This document shows, piece by piece, positions 10,366 through 49,440 of a stretch of 49,440 bases of DNA. The position numbers and the translations under genes were made by a program. The stretch comes from Candidatus Thorarchaeota archaeon (GTDB taxonomy: Archaea; Asgardarchaeota; Thorarchaeia; Thorarchaeales; Thorarchaeaceae). Location of the stretch: the NCBI GenBank assembly GCA_048884785.1, contig JBHLQM010000015.1, positions 1-49,440 of the forward strand, read 5' to 3'. A model generated the notes under the pieces. It saw only the letters and a program-made list of their open reading frames with translations. It searched no databases and was not told the origin of the DNA. Position 1 is the first letter of the stretch. Each line of letters starts with the position of its first letter.

Positions 10366-10532
10366 CATAACTGACATATCATGGTAGTCCAGATGCTGCG
10401 TTCACGGATAGGATATCAGATATGGCATGTTCAGGATCTGCATATGTATAGAAACACCGCTTTAGGCCGTAATTGTCTGGTAGAGTAAGGCTTAACAAAG
10501 ACTGCTCTTTTTCTGGACTGAGGATGTTTCAT

Positions 10533-12932
10533 ATGGCAAAAGAGTTGCAGGTTGAGAAGTATAGAAAATTCTGTTCGCCCAATCTCATTAGATGCAAGAC
10601 TACTGAGGATCTCTCTCCAATCGATGATATTATTGGACAGGAGCGGGCATTGAAAGCTTTAAGCTTTGGCCTTGAAATTGAAGAGAAAGGCTTCAATGTT
10701 TATGCGGCGGGTGCTCCTGGAACAGGAAAGACCACAACCGTCAGCGCATTTCTTGAAGATGTTGCTAAGTCGCGGCCTGTACCTCCGGATTGGTGTTATG
10801 TTTACAATTTTCAGAATCCATCGGAGCCAAATGCCATTAGATTGACACCTGGATGGGCACATCAATTGCAGAGAGACATAAGTGACCTAATCTCAGCAGC
10901 CAGAAATGTACTTCCTGATATATTCGAGAGTGAAGATTACATCACTCGAAGACAGGCCACAACCAAAGCAATTGAGACAGAGCGTGCAAATCTCTTCAAC
11001 AAAGTCAACCAGTATGCTCAGAAGAAAGGATTCATGCTAAGAAGCACCCCGAGTGGCCTACTTGTTATTCCAATGCTGAATGGTCAACCTCTTGCCGATG
11101 AGCAAATTGCCACACTGGATCAAGAAACTCTAGATAAGATTACAAAAGCTCGAGAAGAGATTGATGTTGAACTTCGGAATGCAATGAGGGAGTTAAGGAA
11201 ACTAGAAACTCAAGTAAGTTCCAAGTTGGAGAATCTCAATCGTGACGTGGCACTGTTTGCAATCGGGCATATAATCACAGACTTGCAGACCATATATTCG
11301 AAAAACGAAGAAGTGGTTAAGTTCATCGATGATGTGCAAGAGAGCATTCTTGGCAACATAGGCGCATTCATTGAGGCCAAGAACATATCGGGTCAACCCC
11401 CGGAAGCACAATTCGCCAGTGAGCAATTCTTCAAGCGATATGAAGTAAACATAATGGTGACCAATAAGGATCTAGAAGGTGCACCAGTTGTAGTCGAATA
11501 TAATCCAACATATAGCAATCTTTTTGGCCGCATAGAAAAGGAAGCACGATTCGGTGTGTTGACAACCGATTTTTCGATGATCCAACCAGGGTCGCTTCAT
11601 AGAGCAAATGGCGGGTATCTAATGATTCCTGTTCAAGACCTAGCCAGAACACCTGCCTCATATGAGAGTCTAAAACGGGCTCTGAAGAATGGGAATATAA
11701 CAATTGAAGACATCAGCTTTCCGGGCGCTCCTATATCCGCGAGAGGACTGCAGCCTGAGCCAATAGAATTGAATGTCAAGGTGGTTTTGGTTGGAGATTC
11801 CCAAGTCTATGAGATGCTATACACACAGGACCCGGACTTCAAAGAGCTGTTCAAGGTAAAAGCGCACTTTGACACATCCATGGACCGAACAGAAGAAAAC
11901 ATCCAGAAATACGCGGCTGCAATGGCAAATGTATGCACTAGAGAAGGACTAAGGCATCTTGATGCGGAAGCGGCTGCTAAAATCATCGAATACAGCTCTC
12001 GCCTTGCCGACGATAAGGAGAAGCTCTCCACACGGTTTGCGGACATTTCTGACATAATCCGTGAAGCTACATTTTACGCAACGCAGGATAAGGCTCCACA
12101 TGTGACTGCAGTTCACATAACAAAAGCAATTGAAGAGAGAATATACCGTTCCAATCTCATTCAAGAGAAGATTCAGGAAATGATTCAACGCGGCGTGATT
12201 CTGATCTCAACTGAGGGAGAGGCTGTAGGTCAGATCAATGGTCTAAGTGTTATGAGATACGGTGATTTTGAATTTGGAGGGCCTTCAAGAGTCACGGCCA
12301 GTGTTGCAGTCGGTCGCCAAGGAATCATTGACATTGAGAGGGAATCCGAAATGGGCGGTCGAATTCACACAAAGGGTGTGATGATACTGAGCGGCTATCT
12401 CTCGAGGATATTTGCTCAAGACAAGCCATTGGGGCTTTCTGCACGTCTAGTTTTCGAGCAGAGTTACTCTGGCGTGGATGGTGATAGCGCGTCAAGCACA
12501 GAGCTCTACACATTACTCTCTGCCCTTTCCGGAATTCCAATCAAGCAGTGTTTTGCTGTAACAGGGTCAGTGAATCAACATGGTGAAGTGCAGGCAATCG
12601 GAGGAGTAAATGAAAAGATTGAAGGTTTCTATGAAATCTGTAAAGCGAGAGGGCTTACGGGTGAACATGGTGTACTGATTCCCGAAAGCAATATACAGAA
12701 CCTTATGTTGAAAGAAGAGGTTGTGGATGCGGCAAAGAACGGTCTTTTCCATATTTATCCTGTGAAGACCATTTCTGAGGGCATAGAAATTCTTACAGGG
12801 AAGAAGGCCGGCGCTCGAAAACAGGATGGCACATTCAAGACAGGAACAATATTCGATCTTGTGAACAAGCAATTGATGGAATTTGCTGGAAGGCTCAAAG
12901 AGCATCAATATCAGCAAGACTCAAGACTGTAG
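10533..12932 (+). CDS. Lon-family (S16) protease, soluble LonC/YcbZ-like type
   Basis: IIGQERA, GAPGTGKT, PGSLHRANGGYL, catalytic Ser in GDSASSTE and Lys in NEKIEGF; coiled-coil insert and no TM segment. Confidence 0.9.
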   Translation: MAKELQVEKYRKFCSPNLIRCKTTEDLSPIDDIIGQERALKALSFGLEIEEKGFNVYAAGAPGTGKTTTVSAFLEDVAKSRPVPPDWCYVYNFQNPSEPNAIRLTPGWAHQLQRDISDLISAARNVLPDIFESEDYITRRQATTKAIETERANLFNKVNQYAQKKGFMLRSTPSGLLVIPMLNGQPLADEQIATLDQETLDKITKAREEIDVELRNAMRELRKLETQVSSKLENLNRDVALFAIGHIITDLQTIYSKNEEVVKFIDDVQESILGNIGAFIEAKNISGQPPEAQFASEQFFKRYEVNIMVTNKDLEGAPVVVEYNPTYSNLFGRIEKEARFGVLTTDFSMIQPGSLHRANGGYLMIPVQDLARTPASYESLKRALKNGNITIEDISFPGAPISARGLQPEPIELNVKVVLVGDSQVYEMLYTQDPDFKELFKVKAHFDTSMDRTEENIQKYAAAMANVCTREGLRHLDAEAAAKIIEYSSRLADDKEKLSTRFADISDIIREATFYATQDKAPHVTAVHITKAIEERIYRSNLIQEKIQEMIQRGVILISTEGEAVGQINGLSVMRYGDFEFGGPSRVTASVAVGRQGIIDIERESEMGGRIHTKGVMILSGYLSRIFAQDKPLGLSARLVFEQSYSGVDGDSASSTELYTLLSALSGIPIKQCFAVTGSVNQHGEVQAIGGVNEKIEGFYEICKARGLTGEHGVLIPESNIQNLMLKEEVVDAAKNGLFHIYPVKTISEGIEILTGKKAGARKQDGTFKTGTIFDLVNKQLMEFAGRLKEHQYQQDSRL

Positions 12933-13051
12933 CTTGTCTTTCAAAGCAAAATCTGGAAATTCCATTCGCCTAAGCAACCTGCAAAATGAAATAGATACAA
13001 GACGTTTCTTTAAATTGATACATTCGACTGTTGAAATTACGAGGTGCTCAT

Positions 13052-14791
13052 ATGCCTGATGTGAAAGAAGCCACCGAGTGGATCAAGCAAATTATGGATG
13101 TCGTTCATGATGGTATGCTTGTGATTCAAGAAGAGGAAATAATTCTTGCAAACGACATTTTAGCTAACTTGTTGGGCTATCAGGAAGACGATTTGCTTGA
13201 TATGGACTTTGAGGACCTCGTTGATCCAATATCAATTCGTCACAACCAGGCACAGATTCAGGCTCTGATTTCAGGCAAGAACCTCACGAAGTTCAATACA
13301 AGACTGAAAAGCAAGGATGGTACCGTTCTCCAAGTTGAAGTAAACCCTGCTTTGATAGACATCGGTGATGAACCGTGTGTTTTGGCAGCAGTTCGAGACA
13401 TATCAAGGCAAATTGCATTGGAAGAAGCTGTAATGCAACTAGAACAGCGATTTGCCTCCCTTTATGACCTCTCTCCGGTGCCCTACCTTACTTTAAACAA
13501 TGACGGAATTATTACTCAAGTGAATGAAGCCACTGAGGAATTGCTGCTACAAAGTGCCGATGAGATTATGGGACACTCACTCTCAGAATTTCTTGTTGAG
13601 CGACCAGAAAGAGATACCTACGATCCGAGTGCAGCAATTATCCACGAAGTCATGAGAGGGAAGAGCGTCAAAGGCATAGAACTCGAAATGAAGCAGAAGG
13701 ATGCCAAGTCGACATGGGTAAGTGTAAGCTCCAGGTCCCTGAATCCTGATTCTGAGAGACCTTCAGAGATTGCTCTGACTGCTGTGGATGTTACCCGACG
13801 GAGAAATGCGGAGAAAAGACAGCGCGAGGAAAGCGAGCGGGCCAATCTATACTTCGAACTTATGACCAGTGATTTGAATATTATTCTTCAGAGCGTCCTT
13901 TTTGCTCTGGAGGACCTAAAATTGTCGCTACAGATGACCGACCGCGAGTTGACACTCATTCGGGATTCATCATGGAATCTCCGACGTGCAGCCCGGCTCA
14001 TTGTGAATATGGGCGTTCTACTATCTCTTGGAAGCTCCCCTCCTGCAAAAGGAAAAGTGAATCTTACTCCTCATATCAACAGAGCCGTCCTTGAAGTAAA
14101 ACGTGACTTTGAGGGAAAGACCCTTGAATTCAAATCTGATTTGCCGCAGAAGGATTTTGAAGTAACGGGCCACGCATTTCTCCACAATGTCTTCTTCAAT
14201 ATTCTCCATAATTCTATGACGTACGATGAAAAGGAACCTGTTGAGATTAAAGTGAAGGCAAAGCTGGAGGAGTATGGCCGAGAAGTCAGAATTGAATTTG
14301 AAGATCAAGGTCCAGGAATATATGCTGAGCAAAAGCAGGATATTTTCAGGCGTACTCATGACCCAGAGAGTAAAGTAATCGGAAAAGGTCTCGGGCTAAC
14401 CGTCGCGGACCGATATATCTCACATCTTGGCGGTAGAATCTGGGTTGAGGATAGAATCAAGGGAGACCCCTCAAAAGGAAGTAGGTTTGTTGTTATCCTG
14501 CCTAGATGGCGTGAGAAGGCTGAGCTGCCTGTAATTACATTCTATAAATCTGAACATTGTGTGTTTTGCGGTCCAGTCTTTGAAACTCTCTCTGCAATTA
14601 TGGACGAAATCGGCGTGGGCCGTTCAGTTATAGAAGTAGTAAATATTGATGATCCATCAGCAGGAATTACTGAGGACGATTTGCCTGCGTTGCCCACAAT
14701 ACAGATGGGAACTGAACAGCTGACCGGGTTCCTCTCGGAGGAGGATTTGAGAGCAGGCGTTATGCGCCTTCTTACTACCAACTCAGCATAG
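13052..14791 (+). CDS. PAS-PAS histidine-kinase-like protein (H-box His replaced by Ser) with C-terminal CxxC thioredoxin-like domain
   Basis: Two PAS domains; ELMTSDLN; FFNILHNS, EDQGPGI, GKGLGL, GGRIWVED; tail FYKSEHCVFC...ALPTI; SD GAGGTG. Confidence 0.85.
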   Translation: MPDVKEATEWIKQIMDVVHDGMLVIQEEEIILANDILANLLGYQEDDLLDMDFEDLVDPISIRHNQAQIQALISGKNLTKFNTRLKSKDGTVLQVEVNPALIDIGDEPCVLAAVRDISRQIALEEAVMQLEQRFASLYDLSPVPYLTLNNDGIITQVNEATEELLLQSADEIMGHSLSEFLVERPERDTYDPSAAIIHEVMRGKSVKGIELEMKQKDAKSTWVSVSSRSLNPDSERPSEIALTAVDVTRRRNAEKRQREESERANLYFELMTSDLNIILQSVLFALEDLKLSLQMTDRELTLIRDSSWNLRRAARLIVNMGVLLSLGSSPPAKGKVNLTPHINRAVLEVKRDFEGKTLEFKSDLPQKDFEVTGHAFLHNVFFNILHNSMTYDEKEPVEIKVKAKLEEYGREVRIEFEDQGPGIYAEQKQDIFRRTHDPESKVIGKGLGLTVADRYISHLGGRIWVEDRIKGDPSKGSRFVVILPRWREKAELPVITFYKSEHCVFCGPVFETLSAIMDEIGVGRSVIEVVNIDDPSAGITEDDLPALPTIQMGTEQLTGFLSEEDLRAGVMRLLTTNSA

Positions 14792-15135: not shown

Positions 15136-15633
15136 ATGGCTTCTGTCATTCATATTCCCAATTCTACTTTTAGTCGTGAGGTAGCTTCCGTCCCAGGCGG
15201 TGAAGCAATTAACAAATGCATCCAGTGTGGAATATGCACTGCAAGCTGTATGGTTGCTCGTGCATCAGAGAAATACCGTCCTCGCAAATTGATCCAAAAA
15301 ATACTGATTGGAAAAAGAGAAGAAGTTCTTCGAAGTGAGCAGCCTTGGTTCTGTATGACTTGCCGAATGTGTGAACAGAACTGTCAAGAGGGTGTTAGTC
15401 CAGCTGAGGTGTTTCATGCCGTCAGATATCTTGCTGCACGCGATGGACATGTGCCACAAGTTTTCCGAAAGGCTTTGAAAACTCTTTTTGAAGATGGGTG
15501 GCTTCTGAGCTATGCATATTCAGATTTTGCGGAAGATGAGAGAGATGATTTAGGTCTGAATCCTGATCTTACCTGGAATAGAACATTCGTTCGTCGGATA
15601 AAAGAGAAGTACTTCGGGGAGGCCAATATTTGA
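15136..15633 (+). CDS. hdrC: Heterodisulfide reductase subunit C
   Basis: CIQCGICTASC, PRKLI, WFCMTCRMCEQNC; precedes and overlaps hdrB. Confidence 0.85.
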   Translation: MASVIHIPNSTFSREVASVPGGEAINKCIQCGICTASCMVARASEKYRPRKLIQKILIGKREEVLRSEQPWFCMTCRMCEQNCQEGVSPAEVFHAVRYLAARDGHVPQVFRKALKTLFEDGWLLSYAYSDFAEDERDDLGLNPDLTWNRTFVRRIKEKYFGEANI

Positions 15634-16505
15634 GAGAGATCCTCCTCTATCGCGGCTGTACAACACCTGTTAGATTACCTGCCTACGAGGCGTCAACAAT
15701 TGCAGTATTGGAGAAACTAGGTGTAAAAGCAATAGAATTCAACGATACGAATTGCTGTGGTGCCCAATATGTTGAATCTCTTTCCAAACATGCATATGCG
15801 GCAATGAGTGGTAGAATTTTAGCGCTTGCTGAGAAAGAGGGACTTGACATTCTTGCTCTTTGCGGTGCATGTTCAGGATCCTTGAAAATCAACAAGCATC
15901 TCCTCGACTCCGATATTCATCTCCGTGACGAAGTGAATTCCCTTCTAGAAGATGAGGGCCTCAAGTATTCTGGAAAAGTAAAAGTCCGACACCTCTTACA
16001 GGTTCTGAACGAAGATATAGGTCTGCCAACAATCGAACGGGCAATTGTACGAAAATGCAACGGAGTTAGACTTGCAGCTCATTATGGTTGTCATGTAACT
16101 CGTCCAGTGGAAATTGTTCAAGTAGATGATCCTGAAAGGCCCTCAATTCTGGACAGATTGATTGAAGTTGCAGGTGGGGTGGCTGTAGACTATGTGGGGA
16201 AAACGCACTGCTGTGGAGGGCCAATGCTTGCAATGGATGAGTCTTTGGCTACTGAAATAGGATTTAATAAGATACAGAATGTGGCTTCTGCAAAAGCCGA
16301 GGGGATTGTGACAGCCTGTGTATTTTGCGATATTCAGCTTACTCAGGTTCAGTTCGGCAAGCCGCTACGTGTATCCAGATTGCCAATAATGCCAATAAGT
16401 CAGCTACTAGGTTTTGCCCTTGGAATTGATGATGATGTTTTGGGAATTGGACTTAACAGAATCAGTCCGGAAGCTATTCTTCATGCCACTATGGAGGTTC
16501 AATAA
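15630..16505 (+). CDS. hdrB: Heterodisulfide reductase subunit B
   Basis: Two CCG domains (YRGC...CCGA...CGAC; HYGCH...CCGG...CVFC). Confidence 0.9.
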   Translation: MREILLYRGCTTPVRLPAYEASTIAVLEKLGVKAIEFNDTNCCGAQYVESLSKHAYAAMSGRILALAEKEGLDILALCGACSGSLKINKHLLDSDIHLRDEVNSLLEDEGLKYSGKVKVRHLLQVLNEDIGLPTIERAIVRKCNGVRLAAHYGCHVTRPVEIVQVDDPERPSILDRLIEVAGGVAVDYVGKTHCCGGPMLAMDESLATEIGFNKIQNVASAKAEGIVTACVFCDIQLTQVQFGKPLRVSRLPIMPISQLLGFALGIDDDVLGIGLNRISPEAILHATMEVQ

Positions 16506-17843
16506 ATGATTCAGAGTACAAGTTATGTTAGTAGAGTACGACATTTCGTTTCTGATAATGCGCTAATCGTGGGCGGAGGAGTGGCCGGTATGCAGGCCGC
16601 GCTTGACATCGCCAACCAGGGCTTCAAAGTGTATCTTGTAGAAAAAACATCATCTATTGGAGGACGTATGGCCGCAATAGATAAAACATTCCCAACTCTG
16701 GATTGTTCTGCTTGTATATTGACACCAAAGCTCAGTGAAGTTGCACGACATCCGAACATAGAACTACTAACGTATTCTGAGATGGAAGATGCCTCTGGCC
16801 ATGATGGCAATTTCAAGGTGAAAATTCGCAGAAAAGCACGCTATGTTCATGAAGGTAAGTGTTCTGGATGTGGTGAATGTGCTGCAATATGTCCTTCGGA
16901 GGTTCCCTCAGAATTTGATGAGAGAATTGGATTTCGCAAAGCAATCTATTTGCCTTTTCCTCAAGCAACTCCTGCCGTATATACAATAGATATGGCCTCC
17001 TGCATTGGATGCAAGAGGTGTTCAAAGAGATGTGAACGTGGCGCAATTGACTATGAGATGAAAGACAAAATAATCAAGCTGCAGGTAGGAGCTATTATTG
17101 TGGCTACTGGGTACAAGCTGTTCGATGTCAGTGAATATCCACGCCTTGGATATGGTCGCTATCATAACGTTATCAATGCAATGGAGTATGAACGACTGAT
17201 CAATGCTGCTGGACCTACACATGGTCACCTTATTCGGTTAAGCGATGGAAAAATGCCAAAGAATATTGGCTTTATACAGTGCGTTGGAGCTCGAGATGTA
17301 AACAAGGGATCGCCCTATTGCTCACGTGTGTGTTGCATGTATGGTATAAAGAATGCAGTTATGGCCAAGGAACATGACCCTGAAGCCGAGGTGACCATAT
17401 ACTATGCCGACATCAGGGCGTTCGGGAAGGGGTTCGAAGAGTTTTATGAGATGGCAAAAACCCGATTTGGAGTTCATTTTGTTAAGGGCAGAGTTGGTGA
17501 GGTTATGGAGGATTCAGAAACCCAAGACTTGCTTGTTGAAGTCGAGGATATAATGTCAGCGCATCTCACTGAAGCCCGGCACGATATGCTTGTAATCTGT
17601 CCCGGACTCAAGCCGCCAGATGGTCTTGATGCAGTCGCCAAGAAGCTTAAACTGCATCAGTCTATAGATGGGTATTTGGATATCCACGATTCATTCTTGG
17701 CTCCTGTTGAAACCTCTATTCCCGGAGTATTCACATGTGGGTGTGCTGACGGTCCGAAGGATATTCCCGACAGTGTGACAGCAGGAAGCGCCGCTGCCAT
17801 GCGGGCAACAATTATTCTCTCGAGGGCGGGTGATTTGCTGTGA
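16506..17843 (+). CDS. hdrA: HdrA-like flavoprotein (FAD/TrxR core plus inserted ferredoxin; lacks the N-terminal domain and C-terminal ferredoxin)
   Basis: GGGVAG, KTFPTLDCSAC, CSGCGECAAICP, CIGCKRCSKRC, QCVGARD, CSRVCC, GPKDIP. Confidence 0.9.
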   Translation: MIQSTSYVSRVRHFVSDNALIVGGGVAGMQAALDIANQGFKVYLVEKTSSIGGRMAAIDKTFPTLDCSACILTPKLSEVARHPNIELLTYSEMEDASGHDGNFKVKIRRKARYVHEGKCSGCGECAAICPSEVPSEFDERIGFRKAIYLPFPQATPAVYTIDMASCIGCKRCSKRCERGAIDYEMKDKIIKLQVGAIIVATGYKLFDVSEYPRLGYGRYHNVINAMEYERLINAAGPTHGHLIRLSDGKMPKNIGFIQCVGARDVNKGSPYCSRVCCMYGIKNAVMAKEHDPEAEVTIYYADIRAFGKGFEEFYEMAKTRFGVHFVKGRVGEVMEDSETQDLLVEVEDIMSAHLTEARHDMLVICPGLKPPDGLDAVAKKLKLHQSIDGYLDIHDSFLAPVETSIPGVFTCGCADGPKDIPDSVTAGSAAAMRATIILSRAGDLL

Positions 17844-19591
17844 GTGAAAGTGAAACTCCTAGAATAGGTGTGTTTGTGTGTCACTGCGGTCACAATATTG
17901 CAGGGGTCGTTGATGTTGTGCGTCTGGCAAAGGAAGCCGCATCTTTTCCAAATGTCGTCTTTAGCACGGATGAGATGTTTATGTGCGCCGATGGCGGGCA
18001 GGGACTCATTCGAAGAAAGATCAAGGAATTTGAACTCAATCGAGTTGTTGTGGCAAGTTGTTCACCAAGAATGCACGAACCAACATTTCGCCGTGTAGTA
18101 GAAGAGGCCGGTTTGAACAGGTACTTGTTCGAACAAGTAAATCTTCGTGAGCACGTTTCGTGGTGTCATATGCGACAGCCAGAAGCTGCAACTCAGAAAG
18201 CCATCGACCTAGTACGCATGTCAGTGGCACGTGCGGCAATGCTACAAGAATTGCCAGTTAAGAAAGTCGATGTATTTCCATCAACTCTAGTGGTTGGTTC
18301 TGGAATTGCGGGGCTCACAGCCGCGCTCGATATTGCTGATCGTGGTTTTGATGCTGTCATTGTTGAAAAAGACAAGATTCTGGGAGGGCATGTGGCAAAA
18401 TGGACACATCTCTTCCCATCAGACCAAATTGGAGAACAGGTAATTGAACCTCTTGTTGAGCGATTGATGAGACATGAAAAAGTGAGAGTTCTACGTGATA
18501 GTAGAGTAGTGAAATTTGATGGCTATATTGGCAACTTCGATGTTACAGTACAGCATAATCCTACTGGATCACAGCAGTCCTTCAAAGTTGGAGCGGCGAT
18601 TATTGCTACGGGATTTGAACCCTTCAAGCCCATTGGATACTATGCCTATGGCAAATCTCCAGATATTATCACATTAGCCGAGCTCCAAGAAATGCCACGA
18701 CGATATGAAATATTCAAACCAAGCAACGGTCGCCTTGTCAATAGACTTGCATTCATCGGGTGTGTGGGATCTCGTGAGCCCGGTTTGAAAGGACATGAAC
18801 ACTGTTCTCGACATTGTTGTGCTGCGCTGGCAAAGGCAGCATCAGATTTGCGAGAACGTGTCGAAGAGGTCATTGTTCTTTACCAGGACATTCGTACCTA
18901 TGGGAGAGGGCATGAGGAACTACATAGGCTGGCAAGAAGTAGAAACGTCATATATAGCAAGTTCCCTCCGGATGACAAACCAAAAGTGGAGATAGAAAAT
19001 GGGCGGCCCACTATTACTTGGTACGACGTGCTATCTGAAGATGAACTGAAGTACGAGCCTGACTTGATAGTACTGGCATCAGCAATGCTCCCTCCGAGTG
19101 ATATTGAGGAAACTGCAAAGATGTTTAGCCTAACCCGGAGCGGAGATGGCTTCTTCAACCCAGAGCATATCAAACTTGCTCCATTAACAACACATACTGC
19201 AGGAATTATGATAGCCGGCGCTGCACAAGCAGCAAAGAATGCCCATGAGGCAGCCATTGATGCTAGCGGCGCAGCCGCAAAAGCAGTTTCATTAATGGCC
19301 CGTGGTCAAGTTGAAATCGAATCCACTATAGCACAAGTGAATTCCGAGAGATGTTCATCATGCCATACCTGTGTTTCAGCATGCCCCTATGGTGCTATGG
19401 CTATGGATTATACAGTAACGCCTGAGGTTGCTTTCGTTACGGAAGCGAAATGTCATGGCTGCGGCACGTGTGCTGGTGGTTGTCCAAGTGGCGCAATTAC
19501 GATGTTGCATTCAACAGACGACCAAATACTAACAATGGTCCAAGCCTATTTGGGCTCCACAGGAGGGCAGCAAAAAGCAAAAATTGGATGA
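17840..19591 (+). CDS. hdrA: HdrA-like flavoprotein (N-terminal domain, FAD core, C-terminal ferredoxin; lacks the inserted ferredoxin)
   Basis: RIGVFVCHCG, ASCSPRMHE, GSGIAG, GCVGSRE, CSRHCC, CSSCHTCVSACP, CHGCGTCAGGCP. Confidence 0.9.
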   Translation: MSESETPRIGVFVCHCGHNIAGVVDVVRLAKEAASFPNVVFSTDEMFMCADGGQGLIRRKIKEFELNRVVVASCSPRMHEPTFRRVVEEAGLNRYLFEQVNLREHVSWCHMRQPEAATQKAIDLVRMSVARAAMLQELPVKKVDVFPSTLVVGSGIAGLTAALDIADRGFDAVIVEKDKILGGHVAKWTHLFPSDQIGEQVIEPLVERLMRHEKVRVLRDSRVVKFDGYIGNFDVTVQHNPTGSQQSFKVGAAIIATGFEPFKPIGYYAYGKSPDIITLAELQEMPRRYEIFKPSNGRLVNRLAFIGCVGSREPGLKGHEHCSRHCCAALAKAASDLRERVEEVIVLYQDIRTYGRGHEELHRLARSRNVIYSKFPPDDKPKVEIENGRPTITWYDVLSEDELKYEPDLIVLASAMLPPSDIEETAKMFSLTRSGDGFFNPEHIKLAPLTTHTAGIMIAGAAQAAKNAHEAAIDASGAAAKAVSLMARGQVEIESTIAQVNSERCSSCHTCVSACPYGAMAMDYTVTPEVAFVTEAKCHGCGTCAGGCPSGAITMLHSTDDQILTMVQAYLGSTGGQQKAKIG

Positions 19592-41826: not shown

Positions 41827-42798
41827 TTGCAAATCGGCAAAAACCCAAAGCGCCAAGGAGGCTATTCTGAAATCTTGAAATCGGAAAAAGAAATCATCTC
41901 CCGAATGAGCGGACCAGAGCTAATTCGACTCGCGCAAGCCCTCAGCTTGCCTTTAACAAGCAGACATGTTGCAAGAGCTATAATTGAACAAGACTTGTAT
42001 GACGCCATTATCTCCTCCAGAAGTCCATCTTCAAAGGAAGAAGTAAGCAAACTTCGGACTCCAGCAATCGAAATCAAGGGCATGCGAAAGGAATTTGGAC
42101 GGAAAGTTGCAGTAAATGCTTTGGATTTGGCAGTGAATCCTGGCGAAATTGTAGGACTAGTAGGACCAAACGGGGCCGGAAAAACTACAACACTTAGAGT
42201 TCTGACTGGAATAATAAAACCAACCAATGGCGACGTGTTTGCAAATGGGTTTGATATTTCAAGGAGTCCCATTAAGGCCAAGATGAGAATTGGCTATATT
42301 CCAGAACGTCCTACTTGTTATCCTAGTCTAAGAGTTCTGGAATACCTTACTTTCATTGCTAGAATTTATGATATTCCCAGAATTGATGCACTCCTAAGAA
42401 TTAGGGAGTATGTTGATTTATTCCAACTAGATGAATTTCTGTCAAACTATATCGGGACACTTTCAAAAGGTAATCTGCAGCGGACATTGCTCGCTGGGAT
42501 TTTCGTACGTGCGCCACCTTTCATTCTTGCACTTGATGAGCCAATATACGGTTTAGATCCGAGGGGTGCCTGGAGCTTGAAGGTTCTTCTGAGAAGGTTG
42601 AAGAAGGAAGGTTCCGCAATATTGGTCTCGACACACATTCTTGAGGTTGCAGAAGGTCTCTGTGATAGATTCTACATCATGAACTATGGTGACATAGTTG
42701 GTTCTGGCAGTCTCAGCGAGCTAAAGGCTCAGTGCCCCGGAACAAATAGTCTCGAAGAAGTTTTCCTTACTTTGACTGGTGGCATTCCTGAGGAGTGA
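41827..42798 (+). CDS. ABC transporter ATP-binding protein (ABC-2/exporter type) with N-terminal extension
   Basis: GPNGAGKTT, LSKGN, LALDEP, STH. Confidence 0.92.
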   Translation: MQIGKNPKRQGGYSEILKSEKEIISRMSGPELIRLAQALSLPLTSRHVARAIIEQDLYDAIISSRSPSSKEEVSKLRTPAIEIKGMRKEFGRKVAVNALDLAVNPGEIVGLVGPNGAGKTTTLRVLTGIIKPTNGDVFANGFDISRSPIKAKMRIGYIPERPTCYPSLRVLEYLTFIARIYDIPRIDALLRIREYVDLFQLDEFLSNYIGTLSKGNLQRTLLAGIFVRAPPFILALDEPIYGLDPRGAWSLKVLLRRLKKEGSAILVSTHILEVAEGLCDRFYIMNYGDIVGSGSLSELKAQCPGTNSLEEVFLTLTGGIPEE

Positions 42799-44387
42799 AT
42801 CGAATGAGGGTTAAAACACCTTTGCTGATTAAAAATGAGCTAAAAATGCTCTATAATCAGTTCATCATCGCAATCACTACCCCTTCAATGCTGGCATTTT
42901 ATATAATCACATTTTCAGGAGCCTTATTTGTAAGTTCAATAACCTCAACATTGTTTAATCTAGCACCTCTCTTTACTCCTCTTGGAAGCCTGATTGAGTC
43001 GATTATTGATCGATCGGCTGTCTTTACAGCTCTTGGTCTCCTAACACTAACATCAATCATAGGAGGCTACTTTGGAGGTGGACCTGCAGAAGTTCTCGAG
43101 AGTCCAGATGAGTATATTCTAATGCCCTCTCCGGTACATCCTCATCAATTGTTTATTGGGCGATATATTCGTAGAATTATAAGAAAATTCTTCTATATTG
43201 TCATTGGAGTGGTAATCGTTATCCCATTGATTTCTGAATCTGGATTAGTAGCGGGTTCGATTTTACTTGTTCTAGGATCTATCATCGTATTTCTTGAAAT
43301 CAACTACTTTCTGGGAAGCATCAGTGGTATCTTGAAAAAGAAACTAGGCTACCGATATTCAGGTAGATTTAGACATATCCTATTGCCGGTAATTCTAGCA
43401 ATCATATACATACCTTCACTTCCTTTTTCAACCTGGCACCCTTTTGTACAATTGTCTATGCCAGGAAATCTGATGTCCATTGTTTTAATGGAATCAACTG
43501 GGATTCACAATGTTGGTTTTAGTGTCCTCCCTGTTTTTGGCTTGCTTTTACTTTCCTATTTTATTGCTCTACTAGTTCTCTCAAACATTAGCGACTACGA
43601 CTATTATGAAATGTTCTCAATGAATATGTCGAGAGAGGAAGCAGAAGGACGTTTCAGCAGAAGCATTAGGGGCCAAGTTGATTTCTCAGAATCAAGGTAT
43701 AATGACCCGATGATATGGATAATACTCAAGGATTTCTGGAGCAAAATGAGAACTCCGCTTCAATTCTGGAAATACCTATATGTTGCCTTTGGAACTATAT
43801 TCGGATTATATCTGATCATCATCCAGCCTAGCTGGCTGATGCCTATTCCTTTACCTCCTCAATATATGCATTCAGTCACTCCTGCATTTCTTCTTATCAT
43901 TATTTTAGTAACCCAAATGGCCGCTCTCACATCACTTTTGGCGTTTGTAGATGAGAAAGATAACATCTATCTCCTTCGTGCCAGTCCGTTCAAATCCAAG
44001 GACATTGTTCTCGCTAAATATATCTTGAGCGTTCTAGAGGTGTCTCTCACTGCCCTGCCAATCTATCTCTTCATACTCTACTTTTTCAGAGTGCCAGGCT
44101 CATTCTATTTGGCGTCTCTTGCTGCACCAATGATCATTGTCTTCTCTTCTACGGGGATTATGGCCGGAGCATATGTTCCTGTTTTTACTAATGATCCGAA
44201 GAATCCTCCTGTACCTCTTGCATTCTCATTCCCATCAATTAATTTGATTCTCGGTGGAATAATGATTTGGATGGCCTCGGTTTTCGGAACGGATCCATTC
44301 CTAATTGCATTGCTGCCAGCATTTACATTGGTGATGGTGGTTCTCTTTCTCTCACTTTCTAATCATGCTCTCAAATCATACAGGTGA
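42795..44387 (+). CDS. ABC exporter permease
   Basis: About 12 TM helices, duplicated halves (LMPSPV...RY; LRASPF...AKY); overlaps the ATPase stop. Confidence 0.8.
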   Translation: MNRMRVKTPLLIKNELKMLYNQFIIAITTPSMLAFYIITFSGALFVSSITSTLFNLAPLFTPLGSLIESIIDRSAVFTALGLLTLTSIIGGYFGGGPAEVLESPDEYILMPSPVHPHQLFIGRYIRRIIRKFFYIVIGVVIVIPLISESGLVAGSILLVLGSIIVFLEINYFLGSISGILKKKLGYRYSGRFRHILLPVILAIIYIPSLPFSTWHPFVQLSMPGNLMSIVLMESTGIHNVGFSVLPVFGLLLLSYFIALLVLSNISDYDYYEMFSMNMSREEAEGRFSRSIRGQVDFSESRYNDPMIWIILKDFWSKMRTPLQFWKYLYVAFGTIFGLYLIIIQPSWLMPIPLPPQYMHSVTPAFLLIIILVTQMAALTSLLAFVDEKDNIYLLRASPFKSKDIVLAKYILSVLEVSLTALPIYLFILYFFRVPGSFYLASLAAPMIIVFSSTGIMAGAYVPVFTNDPKNPPVPLAFSFPSINLILGGIMIWMASVFGTDPFLIALLPAFTLVMVVLFLSLSNHALKSYR

Positions 44388-44395
44388 TAATATTC

Positions 44396-46357
44396 TTACT
44401 TCCCTTTTCTTGCTAGTCGAAGTGCATTGGCTATTACTAAGAGCGTGAGCCCCATATCTCCGATCGCAATAGCTATCCACAATGTCACTGCACCAAAGAT
44501 TGCCAAAATCCCAATGAGTATCTTTACGCTAATAGATATTGCAACATTCTGACGTACGATTTGCATCGTCTTCTTCGAACGGGAAATTAGTCTTGGAATT
44601 CTTCTCAGGTCTTGATCCATCAAGGCAATATCTGCCGTTTCCAATGCGGCATCGCTTGAAATTACTCCCATTGCGATTCCGACATCGGCTGCCGCTAACG
44701 CTGGAGTATCGTTTACACCATCTCCAACCATCACAGTTGGGCCCGTTGCGGAGAGCAATTTTACATGCTCCACTTTCTTCTCAGGAAGAAGCTCTGCTTG
44801 ATAATCTATGAATCCTAAACTAGCGGCGACTTCATGTGCAGAACTTTCTGCATCGCCTGTAAGCATGACCGTCTTGATACCTAACTTTGCTAGTTTATCA
44901 AGCGCTTCTTTTGTCCCCTCGCGAATTGCATCTCCCAATATTATTGTGCCAAGGTGCAATCCATCTTTGACTACATAAACAAGTGTCCCATTACCGCAGT
45001 CATGGAATTCAGAGGGAATGGAAACATTGTTTTCAATGAGCATTAGGCGGTTTCCGATAATATAGTTACTATCTCCGATCGATCCCCTTACTCCTCGTCC
45101 TGGGATATTCAAGAAATCTCTGGCTTGCGGAACTATGATTCCCTCTTCTTTTGCCTTTGAAACAAGTGCCTGTGCAATTGGGTGTTCTGACATAATCTCA
45201 AGAGCAACTGCAGCCGCAAGAATGTCCTCTCTTGAGGAACCATTATGCAAACAGATATTCTCTACAGACAACGTTCCTTGAGTTAAAGTTCCTGTTTTGT
45301 CAAATGCAACTATTTTGGCTCTACTAAGTGATTCCAAGTAGTTGGAACCTTTTATCAAGACTCCTTCTCGTGCTGACCCTGCAATTGATGAAACCATGCT
45401 CACAGGAATCGAGATGGCAAATGCGCACGGGCAAGATACAACAAGTAGAGTGAGTCCTCTATAGACCGAATCCTCAATAGTTGCGCCCAAAAGGAAAGTT
45501 GCCAACCCCAATATTAAAGCTCCAGCTACAACTATTGGCGTGTAGATGTGAGAAAACCTCGAAACAAAACGTTCAGGCGACGATTTCCCTTTACGGGCTT
45601 CTTGAACAAGTTCGACAATTCGTGATAGAACACTGTCTTTCGACCTTTTTGTTACTTTTATCTCAAGATAACCATCGATATTGATTGTTCCAGCAAATAC
45701 GGCATCACCCACAGATTTTGAAACAGGTATCGATTCACCCGTAATTGGAGCTTGATTGACTGTTGAAGATCCTTGAACAACTTCTCCGTCCAGTCCAATC
45801 CTTTCTCCAGGTTTCGCAACATATACCTGTCCAACTTGCACATCGTCGGGGGAAGAGCACGATTCTATTCCATCTTGCTTTAGAGTAACGCTCGGAGGCT
45901 CTAAATGTATTAGCGCTTCAATCTCCTTTCTGACGCGGTCTCCTGATTTTTCTTCTAGCAGCTCAGCAATAAAGAAGAGAAACATCACAGCTGCTCCTTC
46001 AGCAGGATCTCCAATAATGATTGCACCAAATGCAGCTACGGTCATTAGGAAACTTATGCCAAGATGTCCTTTCAAGAGCCCTTTGAGGCCATTAGGAATT
46101 ATCCATCTTCCAGAAGACAAAACGGCGATTATGAAACTGGCATATACAAAGTACCATGGATATAGCATATAGCTGAGTAGAAATCCAATGAGTATGAATA
46201 CTGCTGAAGAAAGAGCAAGAACATATTTTATTCGAAAACTCACTGATTCCTTTGTTGCCCTTTCAGCCTCACAGTGATGACAGACAGGCCTATTCTCCGC
46301 TGATATGGTTTCTTGCAGTCCTGAGTATGGTTCTGATGCATTCGTCTTGGAGCTCAT
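44396..46357 (-). CDS. P1B-type heavy-metal (Cd/Zn/Co) ATPase
   Basis: TGES, SCPC, DKTGT, SEHP, GDGVND, N-terminal CHHC. Start uncertain because it overlaps the ArsR gene. Confidence 0.93.
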   Translation of the reverse strand: MSSKTNASEPYSGLQETISAENRPVCHHCEAERATKESVSFRIKYVLALSSAVFILIGFLLSYMLYPWYFVYASFIIAVLSSGRWIIPNGLKGLLKGHLGISFLMTVAAFGAIIIGDPAEGAAVMFLFFIAELLEEKSGDRVRKEIEALIHLEPPSVTLKQDGIESCSSPDDVQVGQVYVAKPGERIGLDGEVVQGSSTVNQAPITGESIPVSKSVGDAVFAGTINIDGYLEIKVTKRSKDSVLSRIVELVQEARKGKSSPERFVSRFSHIYTPIVVAGALILGLATFLLGATIEDSVYRGLTLLVVSCPCAFAISIPVSMVSSIAGSAREGVLIKGSNYLESLSRAKIVAFDKTGTLTQGTLSVENICLHNGSSREDILAAAVALEIMSEHPIAQALVSKAKEEGIIVPQARDFLNIPGRGVRGSIGDSNYIIGNRLMLIENNVSIPSEFHDCGNGTLVYVVKDGLHLGTIILGDAIREGTKEALDKLAKLGIKTVMLTGDAESSAHEVAASLGFIDYQAELLPEKKVEHVKLLSATGPTVMVGDGVNDTPALAAADVGIAMGVISSDAALETADIALMDQDLRRIPRLISRSKKTMQIVRQNVAISISVKILIGILAIFGAVTLWIAIAIGDMGLTLLVIANALRLARKGK

Positions 46358-46616
46358 AGTAAATATTCCTTCCATCTCGTGTGTGTTTTACGAAACCCAT
46401 GTGCTCTAGCTTTGCCAATTGATGGCTGACACGACTTATGTCAATGCCAAGTGCATCGGCAATCTCAGATACAAAGAGTCTTTCAGCTTGCGTTAGTTCT
46501 GCGATGATTCTGACTCGTGTCTGGTCTGATAGGGCTTTGAAGATCTTTACTACTTCATCAACCTCAACACCGTGTAGTCGAACAGGGTATGACTTGGTCT
46601 TCGAAGATTGCATCAT
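46290..46616 (-). CDS. ArsR/SmtB-family metalloregulator
   Basis: FKALSDQTRVRII, VSHQLAKL, RDGRNIYY; SD GAGGTG before 46616. Confidence 0.9.
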   Translation of the reverse strand: MMQSSKTKSYPVRLHGVEVDEVVKIFKALSDQTRVRIIAELTQAERLFVSEIADALGIDISRVSHQLAKLEHMGFVKHTRDGRNIYYELQDECIRTILRTARNHISGE

Positions 46617-46639
46617 CTGACACCTCTTGCCTTTGACAC

Positions 46640-46663
46640 TTGAACATTTGAACAAACGTTCAA
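46640..46663. promoter_or_regulatory. Probable ArsR/SmtB operator
   Basis: TTGAACATTTG-AA-CAAACGTTCAA near-perfect palindrome with a TGAAC core, between an AT-rich TATA-like box (46674-46688, minus strand) and the SD. Confidence 0.7.
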
Positions 46664-46816
46664 ATAATAATGGGCTTATTAAATATAATGATTTAGGATT
46701 GCCTTGCCAATGGATGTTTGAATGATTCGCCACAATAAGTGTTATCAATAGATATAGGCTGACAGCACTGGGACCGATTGGTTTGACGATTATGTCACAT
46801 CAATAATGAAAGTTAG

Positions 46817-48616
46817 ATGAAGAATGTAAATCCGCAGATTATCCTAGGGGATGCGAGTGTGAGCAAGAGAAGAATGCCTAAAGCCGATATAGGAAGTCAA
46901 ATGGGCTCAGTTTACGAAAGGATTTTTCACTCAGCTCGCGATGGTGTTGTCGTAATTCAAGATGGAAAAATTGCCATCGCTAATCCGTCGTTCAGTGCTC
47001 TAACACAATATAATGAATCAGACTTATTGGGTATGAGTTTTGCCGAGTTGTGTGACGAGTCATCAACTACTGAACGAAGGGTTGAAGATAAATCGAATTC
47101 GACTTTTCGTATCAATATTATAGCAAGGACATCCAAGACCGTTCCGGTTGACATTGCACTAACGAAATTCGAGTATGAGCAGAAGCCAGCTCTTTTAGCG
47201 ATAGTTCGTGATGCGTCTTTTCAAATTGACCTAGAGCGGATTGCCCAAGCATCAGAGAGTAAGTATAGAAACCTCTTTGACTCATCCCCAATGGCCTACT
47301 TTTCGCTGAGCCCACATGGAATAATCCAGCAAGTGAATAATGCAGCAGCAGAACTTCTAGGATATCCAATTGAGGACCTTGTGCGGCGAAGCATATCGTC
47401 ACTATTCCCACAGAATGGAACATTCTCAGATAGTGGCAAAGTCCTCATTTCAGAAATAATGCAAGGAAAGGAGATCAAAGATCTAGAGGTTCAGATGGTT
47501 GATTCAGAAGGAAAGAGAATTTGGGTTAGTATAACTGCAAGTCTTCTGAAAAACCCAGGAATCATAAATGCAATTGGTCTGATGGCTGTAAATATTGATA
47601 GAAGAAAACTTGCTGAAGCTCGGGCATTTGCTAATCAAGAGCGGGCCGCATTGATTCTAGAAGTTATGACTCATGATTTGAATAACGTAAACCAGAGTCT
47701 TCTCTTTTCGCTTGGTCTGATTGATGTGCTTCCAGATCTTTCTCAACCGGGAAAGAACCTTGTTCAGCAAACCATTGATGAAGTAAAGAGGTCAGCTAGA
47801 ATGATCTCCAATCTTCGCTCAATATTTGACATGGGCGACTCTCCCCTTGAGTCGGAAGCAATGGACCTTGCTCCAATTGTTCAACAAGCGCTTCATATGG
47901 TTGAAGAAGAAATGCCATCAAAGAGGATCCTGCTCGGAATGGATTTTCAAAAAGGGGACATGATTATTGAAGGGCATCCTAAACTTCAGACAGTTTTCTT
48001 CAATATGCTTCTAAATTCCGCTCAATTTGATTCAAAGAATGAAGTTGTCATCAATCTTTCTTCGAAAAAAACCAAGTCAGGAGAAAAGATACGTCTGGAA
48101 ATAGAGGATTTTGGAAGAGGTATACCCGATTCTTTGAAAGAATACATCTTTAGAAGATCGGGACACCCAGACGCTCAGATTGTCGGACGTGGCCTTGGTC
48201 TAACTTTGGTTGATAGAATAATAAGTAGTCTGGGTGGAGAAATATGGGTTGAGGACCGAGTAGAAGGAGATTATTCACAGGGAGCTCGCTTCATATTGAT
48301 GATGCGTCTTTGGAATGAACGGAAAATACTCGAATGTGGTAGATTATCATGCGTTTCCTTCTATAGATCTGAGCATTGCCTATTTTGCGAACCTACTTTT
48401 GAAATACTGCAAGGAGTTATGGATGAATTAAGCATTCCCGTTTCTTTGCTAGAAGTGGTCAATGTTGATGACCCGCTTGCTGGAATCAGAGAGAGTGATC
48501 TGCCGATGCTGCCTTTCACAAAGATATGCAACCATGAAATTGTTGGCTTTGCCGATATTGATGACGTGCGAGTGGCTTTGATGAACCTCCTTATGCATCC
48601 GTGCTATCCCTACTAG
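46817..48616 (+). CDS. PAS-PAS histidine kinase with C-terminal CxxC thioredoxin-like domain
   Basis: EVMTHDLNN, FFNMLLNS, EDFGRGI, GRGLGL; tail FYRSEHCLFC...MLPF. Start may be 46874. Confidence 0.88.
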   Translation: MKNVNPQIILGDASVSKRRMPKADIGSQMGSVYERIFHSARDGVVVIQDGKIAIANPSFSALTQYNESDLLGMSFAELCDESSTTERRVEDKSNSTFRINIIARTSKTVPVDIALTKFEYEQKPALLAIVRDASFQIDLERIAQASESKYRNLFDSSPMAYFSLSPHGIIQQVNNAAAELLGYPIEDLVRRSISSLFPQNGTFSDSGKVLISEIMQGKEIKDLEVQMVDSEGKRIWVSITASLLKNPGIINAIGLMAVNIDRRKLAEARAFANQERAALILEVMTHDLNNVNQSLLFSLGLIDVLPDLSQPGKNLVQQTIDEVKRSARMISNLRSIFDMGDSPLESEAMDLAPIVQQALHMVEEEMPSKRILLGMDFQKGDMIIEGHPKLQTVFFNMLLNSAQFDSKNEVVINLSSKKTKSGEKIRLEIEDFGRGIPDSLKEYIFRRSGHPDAQIVGRGLGLTLVDRIISSLGGEIWVEDRVEGDYSQGARFILMMRLWNERKILECGRLSCVSFYRSEHCLFCEPTFEILQGVMDELSIPVSLLEVVNVDDPLAGIRESDLPMLPFTKICNHEIVGFADIDDVRVALMNLLMHPCYPY

Positions 48617-48679
48617 TTGCTCTCCGATTAGATAGACCAAAGATTATTCAATACAGCCAGTTCAAGTTCTTTGATTAAG

Positions 48680-49440
48680 ATGGAATTCGGGATACAGATT
48701 GAACCACAGTTTGGTTTCACACATGAGGAAGTGGTTGCAATCGCGGAAACATGTGTGAAGAATGGCTTCTCTACAGTTTGGTTCTCTGATCACTTTATGC
48801 TGGATGGTGCATCTACGGATAGGTCTCTACTTGATCCTTGGTTGCTAATGACATTGCTAGTCAGTAATAATCCAAATGTTCGTGTTGGAAGTCTAGTATT
48901 CTGCAACAACTATCGCCATCCTCCTATTCATGCGAAAATGGCAGCTAGTCTTGATGTGATATCAGGGGGAAGACTCGAGTTTGGTATTGGCGCAGGCTGG
49001 AAGGAAATGGAATACGAATCGTATGGTATTGTCTTTCCGGATTCGCTAACCCGAATTTCTCAACTTTCGGAAGCCGTGCAAATCATTCGGGGAATATGGA
49101 CAAACGAGAAGTTCTCCTTCTCGGGCAAACACTACACAGTTCGAGATTTGATATCGTTTCCCAAGCCCGTGCAAAATCCTCATCCAACTATTTGGATTGG
49201 CACAATGTATGGCCGAAAGAGGATGGTTGAGCTCGCTGCAAAGTATGGTGATGGCATTAATGTAGCTTGGGCCTTCACTGCTAATGATTGCAGGAGGATT
49301 TTCGAGCGGCTGGACAGCATCGCGGAGAAGTATAAGAGAACCAAACCAATCAAGAAGTCTGTTGGCTTTTGGACACACTGCTTTGAGTCAAAAGATGAGA
49401 TGGAACAAGCCATTGCTGATGGTGCAAAAAGGCGGAATAT
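48680..49440 (+). CDS. LLM-class (probably F420-dependent) oxidoreductase, truncated by the window end; absent from the ORF track
   Basis: MEFGIQIEPQFG...WFSDHF...YRHP...LDVISGGRLEFGIGAGW...PKPVQNPHPTIWIG. Confidence 0.9.
   Translation, partial: MEFGIQIEPQFGFTHEEVVAIAETCVKNGFSTVWFSDHFMLDGASTDRSLLDPWLLMTLLVSNNPNVRVGSLVFCNNYRHPPIHAKMAASLDVISGGRLEFGIGAGWKEMEYESYGIVFPDSLTRISQLSEAVQIIRGIWTNEKFSFSGKHYTVRDLISFPKPVQNPHPTIWIGTMYGRKRMVELAAKYGDGINVAWAFTANDCRRIFERLDSIAEKYKRTKPIKKSVGFWTHCFESKDEMEQAIADGAKRRN

Follow-up and report, generated by a model that had tools for sequence, protein, structure and literature searches.

A predicted histidine kinase and a histidine-less paralog with C-terminal CxxC thioredoxin-like tails in Candidatus Thorarchaeota

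Introduction

Several described signalling systems resemble, each in part, the two genes considered here, A and B, which are found on a 49,440-nucleotide stretch of DNA from a Candidatus Thorarchaeota archaeon (assembly GCA_048884785.1, contig JBHLQM010000015.1, positions 1 to 49,440; hereafter the window, meaning the whole stretch analysed), and which both encode sensor-kinase-like proteins ending in a small thioredoxin-like domain with a CxxC motif. Asgard archaea, to which this organism belongs, are the closest known archaeal relatives of eukaryotes, and their signalling is almost entirely uncharacterised. Hybrid histidine kinases resemble A and B in carrying, after a short linker, an additional globular domain C-terminal to the HATPase domain, but this domain is a receiver in the former and a thioredoxin fold in the latter. 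SasA of cyanobacteria likewise combines a thioredoxin-fold domain and a histidine kinase in one polypeptide, the former serving signalling rather than metabolism. The KaiB-like domain of SasA is N-terminal, lacks a CxxC and binds KaiC, whereas the domain of A and B is C-terminal, its CxxC and cis-proline are invariant, and its KaiB scores remain below the threshold for membership of that family. Thiol control has likewise been proposed for kinases of the ArcB and RegB/PrrB types, in which the redox-active cysteines are located within the linker or the DHp region of the kinase itself; A and B, in contrast, append a whole thioredoxin domain, and no homology is implied by this comparison.

Pseudo-histidine kinases of the DivL/ChrS type, which signal by protein contacts, constitute a second group of relevance, and a pseudokinase variant of ChrS is reportedly a further case comparable to A. 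DivL of Caulobacter, to which a profile match was obtained (PDB 4Q20), retains the DHp/GHKL fold, has its acceptor histidine replaced and possesses a paralogous working kinase, all of which is also observed or predicted for A. However, A differs from DivL and ChrS in its C-terminal CxxC thioredoxin domain, in its archaeal origin, in the variable nature of the replacing residue (S/N/T/Q/Y) and in the loss of the Mg-binding asparagine in most of its orthologs.

As regards the terminal domain itself, the nearest described proteins are the small archaeal thioredoxins MJ0307 (1FO5) and Mt0807 (1NHO) and the family Thioredoxin_3 (PF13192), which share with the tails of A and B a length of about 85 residues, a minimal thioredoxin fold, a CxxC at the start of helix 1 and a cis-proline before strand 3. 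Unlike MJ0307 and Mt0807, the tails are not free-standing but form the C-terminal end of a kinase or pseudokinase, and they read H-C-x-F-C-x-P instead of CPHC or CPYC. Additionally, B and many standalone relatives carry a set of four extra cysteines, and the kinase tails fall below all Pfam thresholds.

A census of archaeal two-component systems reported fusions of a receiver with thioredoxin reductase in Heimdallarchaeota and did not mention thioredoxin in connection with a kinase (PMC5847659), and a 2023 study of Asgard sensor kinases mentioned neither thioredoxin nor Thorarchaeota (PMC10343646). Full-text literature searches for fusions of kinases with thioredoxin domains returned nothing relevant and no description of the A/B family. 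The suspicion voiced in the initial annotation of this DNA, which was made from the sequence alone, that the architecture had not been characterised therefore agrees with both censuses. While its components are of known kinds (a PAS kinase, a pseudokinase and a small archaeal thioredoxin), their combination, the pairing of kinase with pseudokinase and the four-cysteine variant appear undescribed.

Architecture of genes A and B

Gene A (positions 13052..14791, forward strand) encodes 579 amino acids from the ATG at 13052, and gene B (46817..48616, forward strand) encodes 599 amino acids. In both, the open reading frame (ORF) and Pfam analyses indicated the order PAS-PAS-DHp-HATPase-thioredoxin, with two PAS matches and one HATPase_c match each, the latter at E=2.4e-18 and 1.1e-15 for A and B, respectively. 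No match to the HisKA model or to Response_reg (PF00072) was obtained in either protein by the Pfam scan. The two proteins can be aligned over their full length with 36% identity (E=8e-127) and are thus paralogs. If the upstream TTG at 13031 were used, A would comprise 586 amino acids, whereas its database orthologs have 579. The start of B is ambiguous between the ATG at 46817, which gives 599 amino acids, and position 46859 (residue 15), which gives 585; the 585-residue form is the one entered in public databases and in the ESM Atlas.

ORF analysis, Pfam and alignment located both reading frames, each ending in a tail of about 85 residues, where the initial annotation had placed them, and also the tail motifs that it quoted, namely FYKSEHCVFC and LPALPT in A and FYRSEHCLFC and LPMLPF in B. 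Given that the C-terminal domain has a thioredoxin fold and is not a receiver, neither protein is a hybrid histidine kinase. Members of this family are publicly annotated merely as 'PAS domain S-box protein' because the kinase tails fall below the Pfam thresholds; with no Pfam call on any tail, annotation pipelines miss this domain altogether.

The tail as a thioredoxin fold

The tail of A (14528..14791, forward strand) was recognised as a thioredoxin fold of beta-alpha-beta...beta-beta-alpha topology by AlphaFold2, by Foldseek and by a profile, A1, built from the two kinase tails and the standalone paralogs of the same genome. The AlphaFold2 model, for which the input was a 77-sequence alignment that included these bridging standalone paralogs, had a predicted local distance difference test score (pLDDT) of 88.9 and a predicted template-modelling score (pTM) of 0.80, with the elements E11-15, H22-36, E43-47, E65-68, E71-74 and H79-93. 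The boundaries first assigned to the tail fit this modelled domain, whose first strand begins at about 14534. When the model was compared with the PDB by Foldseek, the top matches listed were all thioredoxin folds, mostly thioredoxins and glutaredoxins (probability 1.0, template-modelling (TM) score 0.5-0.68). For B, whose tail (48335..48616, forward strand) contains six cysteines and was delimited by alignments, AlphaFold2 and the ESM Atlas, the Atlas's own model matched Thioredoxin_3 and glutaredoxin clusters with TM scores of 0.64-0.71.

Profile A1 reached MJ0307 (1FO5) at E=3.5e-10 and Mt0807 (1NHO) at E=3.8e-9, both over the full length, and these alignments placed the CxxC of the tail over CPHC/CPYC and its proline over the cis-proline region of the two structures. 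Chains of KaiB were matched weakly by the same profile (1WWJ, E=0.0013; 1R5P, E=0.0027). Direct Pfam and NCBIfam scans of the tails returned sub-threshold matches only, the best for A being Glrx-like at E=0.044, accompanied by a spurious HTH_CodY match and a TraF-like one.

The genome from which the window derives (3.6 Mb in 158 contigs, 91% complete) contains five standalone ORFs of 88-127 amino acids that resemble the tail of A (E 3.6e-10 to 2e-3), several of which pass the Pfam threshold of Thioredoxin_3 (E=3.4e-10) or of Thioredoxin. Sub-threshold matches to the Pfam KaiB family were obtained for standalone paralogs and for the protein P0146. The five standalone genes are L003 (C20:43381-43620), L005 (C2:51948-52196), L004, L006 and L007; L003 and L005 carry the full set of four extra cysteines, and another HATPase_c gene (C2:49553-49852) is located about 2 kb away from L005.

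Conservation was assessed in an alignment of 53 sequences, consisting of 52 members of the A lineage and B. The active-site-like motif CVFC of A (14558..14569, forward strand), whose cysteine codons occupy 14558-14560 and 14567-14569, is formed by C503 and C506, invariant in 53/53, as are H502, which directly precedes it, F505 and P508. The putative cis-proline, the second proline of LPALPT (14693..14695, forward strand), is also invariant and aligns with the cis-proline region of 1FO5, which reads VPT. Altogether, the invariant columns of the tail comprise S-x-H-C-x-F-C-x-P, a leading tyrosine, L-P-x-L-P, a glycine, an aspartate and an arginine, and the invariance of SxHCxFCxP and LPxLP in 53 members is far beyond chance. 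Model, structural matches and profile matches thus agree with the earlier proposal of a thioredoxin fold of the MJ0307/Mt0807 type, and both the cysteine pair and the cis-proline turned out to be conserved without exception in this alignment.

Kinase motifs of B and their alteration in A

The H-box of B reads MTHDLNN, and its predicted phospho-acceptor histidine (47672..47674, forward strand) aligns with that of the KdpD motif SHDLRTP. In A, the alignment of the two paralogs, with the B histidine anchored on the KdpD motif, places a serine at this position, within LMT-S-DLN (13868..13870, forward strand). The acceptor column of the 53-sequence alignment contains S37/N11/T4/H1, the sole histidine being that of B; among other members of the A lineage, L032 has glutamine, P0086 has tyrosine and P0085 keeps histidine. 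The B lineage, on the other hand, keeps the acceptor histidine in every sequence with an intact H-box region. A possible use of the serine of A as an alternative phospho-acceptor was considered and rejected, since the column also contains asparagine and threonine, plus glutamine and tyrosine in relatives.

The ATP-binding boxes show a similar division. The Mg-binding asparagine of the N-box is replaced by phenylalanine or tyrosine in 37/53 sequences of the A-lineage alignment, while it is kept in the A gene of the window and in the B lineage. The G1 box is degenerate in several A-lineage members and is kept as DxGxGIP in the B lineage, and the G2 box is mostly kept in the former and reads GRGLGL in the latter. 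The A protein of the window itself still presents FFNILHN, DQGPG and GKGLGL, and the B protein also keeps N, G1 and G2. Because the acceptor histidine, the N-box asparagine and the G1 and G2 boxes are all kept, B most likely functions as a genuine autophosphorylating histidine kinase, which would serve an orphan receiver encoded elsewhere in the genome. The description of the two genes as two histidine kinases consequently stands for B, all of whose motifs are intact, but not for A, which has serine at the acceptor position and belongs to a lineage with S/N/T/Q/Y.

Despite these replacements, A does not have the appearance of a degenerating sequence. Mean pairwise identity within its lineage is 0.70 in DHp, 0.66 in the thioredoxin domain, 0.64 in PAS2, 0.61 in the ATPase domain (CA) and 0.54 in PAS1, and since DHp and the thioredoxin domain are the best-conserved parts, A is regarded as a conserved pseudokinase and not as a decaying gene. 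Full-length intact ORFs of the A type were found in eight genera (g1, g4, g6, g7, g11, g12, g14 and g16). Across the five domains and the linker, 81 columns are invariant among the 52 A-lineage sequences. The 53-sequence alignment that includes B has 61 invariant columns. A thus combines a conserved DHp/GHKL body with a replaced acceptor histidine and maintenance under selection, as expected of a pseudo-histidine kinase.

Neither the window nor the conserved neighbourhoods of the A and B loci were found to contain a response regulator. The initial annotation had remarked on this absence, and the window indeed holds no receiver domain, the five Response_reg matches of the genome being all on other contigs. 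Its significance, however, is limited: genome-wide, these five receiver domains stand against 17 HATPase_c matches, which may include proteins other than sensor kinases, and for this reason an orphan kinase is not unusual here.

Four extra cysteines of the B tail

Besides the CLFC motif (48377-48388), the tail of B contains a CGRLSC motif (48335-48352), a cysteine after strand beta3 (48527-48529) and a C-terminal cysteine (48602-48604). The four extra cysteines therefore correspond to a C-G-R-x-x-C pair before strand 1, a cysteine after strand 3 (I-x-I-C) and one near the C-terminus, and this set recurs throughout the B-lineage tails, that of B included, and in many standalone relatives. Their occurrence is all-or-none across 77 thioredoxin-like sequences: all four are present in 31 of them and none in 32, and the few partial sets include sequences cut at a contig end. 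Within the A lineage, they are kept in early branches and lost in the core clade. Judging from the thioredoxin topology, the four cysteines would lie at the pole opposite the CxxC, and the simplest reading is that they probably form a single metal site, of the Zn(Cys)4 or Fe-S type. In an AlphaFold2 model of the ATPase and thioredoxin fragment of B, mean pLDDT was 88, falling to about 80 over the CGRxxC linker, with a pTM of 0.66.

Distribution and phylogeny

A search with the tail of A retrieved 65 protein clusters of about 577 amino acids and the same Pfam content, and all named ones were from Candidatus Thorarchaeota. In a survey of 400 genomes of the phylum at a cut-off of E<=1e-8, the A tail was matched in 76/85 other genomes of the GTDB family of the window, across all 16 genera, and in 0/314 genomes of the 32 other families. 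The B tail was matched in 82/85 other genomes of the family, and in 23/23 of the high-quality ones, with G000 counted. This kinase-thioredoxin fusion is thus restricted to a single GTDB family of the Asgard archaea, in which A and B represent a near-universal, family-specific sensor pair with a redox-type thioredoxin where hybrid kinases carry a receiver.

A typical genome of the family has the two fused genes, often located 18-35 kb apart on one contig as in the window, and one or more standalone copies of about 115 amino acids. Four genera (g2, g9, g13 and g15) have a B-type gene alone, and every genus with an observed A type also has the B type. In a quick maximum-likelihood search with midpoint rooting, all A-type sequences formed one clade (SH-aLRT 99) nested among the B-type sequences, and within this clade P0085 alone keeps the histidine. 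Early branches of the clade, represented by a g16 member with glutamine and g12 members with serine, have the B-like extra cysteines, which the core clade, including the A gene of the window, lacks. The A clade can accordingly be read as a derived duplicate that would have lost the acceptor histidine and later the four extra cysteines, with loss of the Mg-binding asparagine in most members.

The same thioredoxin module in other Asgard signalling proteins

An exhaustive profile search gave 494 matches at E<=1e-3, and among the best 150 of the 494, the long ones with similarity to kinases were all full-length relatives of A or B. Related modules were also recognised in other arrangements. P0148, whose cluster-mate P0143 is recorded as 'Asgard group archaeon', has the order PAS, thioredoxin and, further on, HATPase_c (Pfam), and P0223 is a near-identical cluster member of 659 amino acids. 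P0147, an NCBI record, joins the thioredoxin domain to a following Arf-type GTPase, P0182 of Heimdallarchaeota carries it after a Ras-type GTPase, and P0201 of Jordarchaeales carries it before a V4R domain. The CxxC is kept in all five proteins (P0148, P0223, P0147, P0182 and P0201). When the H-box regions ELTSTKLVEPL of P0148 and EVTSTKLLEPL of P0223 were aligned by eye to SHELRTPL, threonine was found at the acceptor position, so that these kinases are His-less as well. When longer fusions of the B tail were sought by a word-based search, close orthologs of B were all that came up.

This repeated fusion to signalling domains favours a portable regulatory or sensor role of the module over that of a housekeeping reductase, and its presence on small GTPases of Asgard archaea suggests that redox control may reach more widely into their signalling. 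It is possible, although we advance it only tentatively, that the H-C-x-x-C thioredoxin is a portable thiol-switch domain of Asgard archaea, which different proteins would have acquired independently, namely histidine kinases, His-less pseudokinases, Arf/Ras-type GTPases and V4R proteins. In the His-less kinases it would replace phosphotransfer as the output, through disulfide exchange or redox-dependent binding of a partner, and A and B would form a heteromeric unit combining redox and phosphate signals.

Proposed mechanism and alternative explanations

On balance, we favour with modest confidence the reading that A and B represent two branches of a single soluble family, in which B would be a kinase gated by a CxxC thiol switch and A its pseudokinase regulatory partner. 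Each protein consists of a PAS-PAS sensor, the DHp dimerisation helices, a GHKL ATPase, a tether of about 10 residues and a minimal thioredoxin with H-C-x-F-C and cis-proline, and the CxxC tail would act as a dithiol/disulfide or mixed-disulfide switch. In B, the state of the CxxC would be passed through the tether to the ATPase/DHp core, thereby gating kinase output, and B would phosphorylate an orphan receiver. A, as a pseudokinase, would relay no phosphate from the canonical site; its signalling would instead use protein contacts and thiol chemistry by way of its DHp and thioredoxin surfaces. As in the pseudokinase/kinase pairs DivL-CckA and RetS-GacS, with which no homology is claimed, A could plausibly act as a regulatory partner of B. 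The tail probably links thiol chemistry to signalling. The thiol-redox-coupled kinase envisaged in the initial annotation is nevertheless a hypothesis, and the A lineage keeps the CxxC tail even where the canonical histidine is missing and cannot take part in phosphotransfer. If the CxxC is indeed a switch, the family would provide a clear natural case of thiol chemistry wired into a two-component scaffold, and the working kinase and its dead twin would represent a tractable pair for studying how pseudokinases originate.

Several points weigh against this reading. The redox, metal-binding and kinase activities are predictions, and the partnership of A and B is deduced only from the fact that they occur together and are linked in a single family, a setting in which shared gene order could be a matter of plain inheritance. 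Neither a thioredoxin reductase nor any evident redox partner is encoded in linkage with the A and B loci, and the adjacency of A to genes of the heterodisulfide reductase (Hdr) type is unconserved. Both domains are confident in the two-domain AlphaFold2 model of B (pTM 0.66), but no confident docking of the thioredoxin domain on the ATPase was obtained. Furthermore, 0/25 kinase tails reach any Pfam threshold, and a profile made from these 25 tails alone reaches 1FO5, full length and in register, at E=0.02. With so marginal a match, the sequence homology to thioredoxins depends on the bridging paralogs and on a structural model whose alignment includes them. Finally, the position of A as nested and derived depends on the assumed midpoint root of a quick tree.

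The alternative that survives best, which we nevertheless consider unlikely, is that the thioredoxin tail is an enzymatic output, i.e., a protein-disulfide reductase or oxidase gated by the signal, for which PAS, DHp and ATPase would constitute a regulatory scaffold in both lineages. The CxxC, the preceding histidine and the cis-proline are invariant even in a His-less lineage with eroded ATP-binding residues, the thioredoxin domain is among the best conserved of the A lineage, and the PDB entries of its nearest structurally solved relatives, MJ0307 and Mt0807, bear the name thioredoxin or probable thioredoxin. However, the full set of kinase motifs in B speaks for genuine phosphotransfer, no linked reductase is present to recycle the thioredoxin, and the same clade of thioredoxins is found on GTPases and V4R domains, where a sensor role would be more natural.

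A non-redox docking function similar to that of SasA and KaiB, in which the fold would be a protein-protein module for a partner or for the sister kinase and its cysteines structural or metal ligands, appears improbable. SasA provides a precedent for a kinase carrying a thioredoxin-fold domain, a pseudokinase such as A must act through contacts, and weak profile matches to KaiB chains were obtained, together with the sub-threshold Pfam KaiB matches of standalone paralogs and P0146. Nonetheless, KaiB and the N-terminal domain of SasA lack a CxxC, whereas the redox signature of CxxC and cis-proline is invariant in 53/53; all KaiB scores are below threshold, and the best matches are redox-active thioredoxins.

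It is also rather improbable that B is a sensor of metal or thiophilic stress, in which the Cys-rich tail (six cysteines and a histidine) would bind Zn, Cd, another soft metal or an Fe-S centre as the signal. This role would be tied to the adjacent genes for an ArsR-family regulator and a CPC-type P-type ATPase, both of which stand beside B in 6 other genera (in a seventh, only the ArsR gene does). An operator-like palindrome lies in the intergenic region shared by the regulator and B, and the all-or-none occurrence of the four extra cysteines is what would be expected of one metal site. Conversely, the A lineage lacks both the four cysteines and the neighbourhood of B and yet keeps the CxxC, and a four-cysteine site opposite the active site would be more typical of structural Zn. 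The palindrome is present in 3/9 genera only, and the conserved block includes unrelated genes, for an ABC ATPase and a 530-amino-acid protein, so that it may be inherited synteny. Lastly, the idea that A is a decaying duplicate or pseudogene without a function of its own, suggested by its loss of the acceptor histidine and the four cysteines, the loss of the Mg-binding asparagine in most orthologs and the partial erosion of G1, was rejected as virtually untenable, being contradicted by intact ORFs in eight genera, 81 invariant columns among 52 A-lineage sequences and a mean identity of 66-70% in DHp and the thioredoxin domain.

Genomic context of A and B

The gene divergent from B encodes the ArsR-family regulator (46290..46748, reverse strand; Pfam HTH_5), with a probable ATG near 46616, and 8 loci retrieved from 7 additional genera show the same pairing with a B-lineage gene. 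It is followed by the P-type ATPase gene (44396..46375, reverse strand; Pfam E1-E2_ATPase and Hydrolase), whose product has a CPC motif and an N-terminal CxxC and is probably of the heavy-metal type. The interval 41827-44387 contains a gene for an ABC-transporter ATPase and an adjacent 530-amino-acid ORF without a Pfam match, which is possibly its permease partner. The block formed by the ABC ATPase, the 530-amino-acid protein, the P-type ATPase, ArsR and kinase B recurs in full in 7 loci retrieved from 6 additional genera, and partially in 4 more, which may reflect co-regulation or only synteny inherited within one family.

An 11-2-11 palindrome, TTGAACATTTG..CAAACGTTCAA, occupies 46640-46663 in the divergent intergenic region between the ArsR gene and kinase B, and it looks like an operator of the ArsR/SmtB type. 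The motif TGAAC...GTTCA was found at the homologous place in L027 (g11) and L035 (g2), and not in six other genera, against a background of 0.09 per kb. On the other side of B, a gene for a luciferase-like monooxygenase (48671..49438, forward strand; Pfam Bac_luciferase) follows directly 3' and runs off the window; such a gene is also found directly 3' of the B-lineage gene in 4 other genera and 4 kb upstream of it in a fifth.

Downstream of A, Pfam matches identified genes for an HdrC-like protein, an HdrB-like protein (CCG) and two HdrA-like proteins (15136..19591, forward strand). The two HdrA-like genes of this cluster are separate and encode 445 and 583 amino acids. The neighbours of A and B, Hdr-like genes and a luciferase-like oxidoreductase, are therefore those named in the initial annotation. 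Hdr-type genes adjoin the A-lineage gene in three genera only, namely g1 and g4, which share the same order, and g14, in which they are upstream. They were not found within about 8 kb of the A-lineage gene in g6, g11, g12 and g16, as inspected in 18-kb regions. In the closed genome G320, which belongs to another genus, about 2.1 Mb separate the orthologous hdrB from the A-lineage gene, and 5-9 paralogs of HdrB (CCG domain) are present per genome in the family (G320, G336, G353, G372 and G392). A functional link of A with hdr as a conserved feature was thus rejected, given its restriction to g1, g4 and g14, the two arrangements and the lack of linkage in G320; the association drawn from the window is real there and unconserved elsewhere. 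Upstream of A, positions 10473-12932 contain a gene for a Lon-like protease, a long ORF starting from TTG with matches to AAA_32 (LonB-like AAA), the LonB LID, the LonC helical domain and Lon_C.

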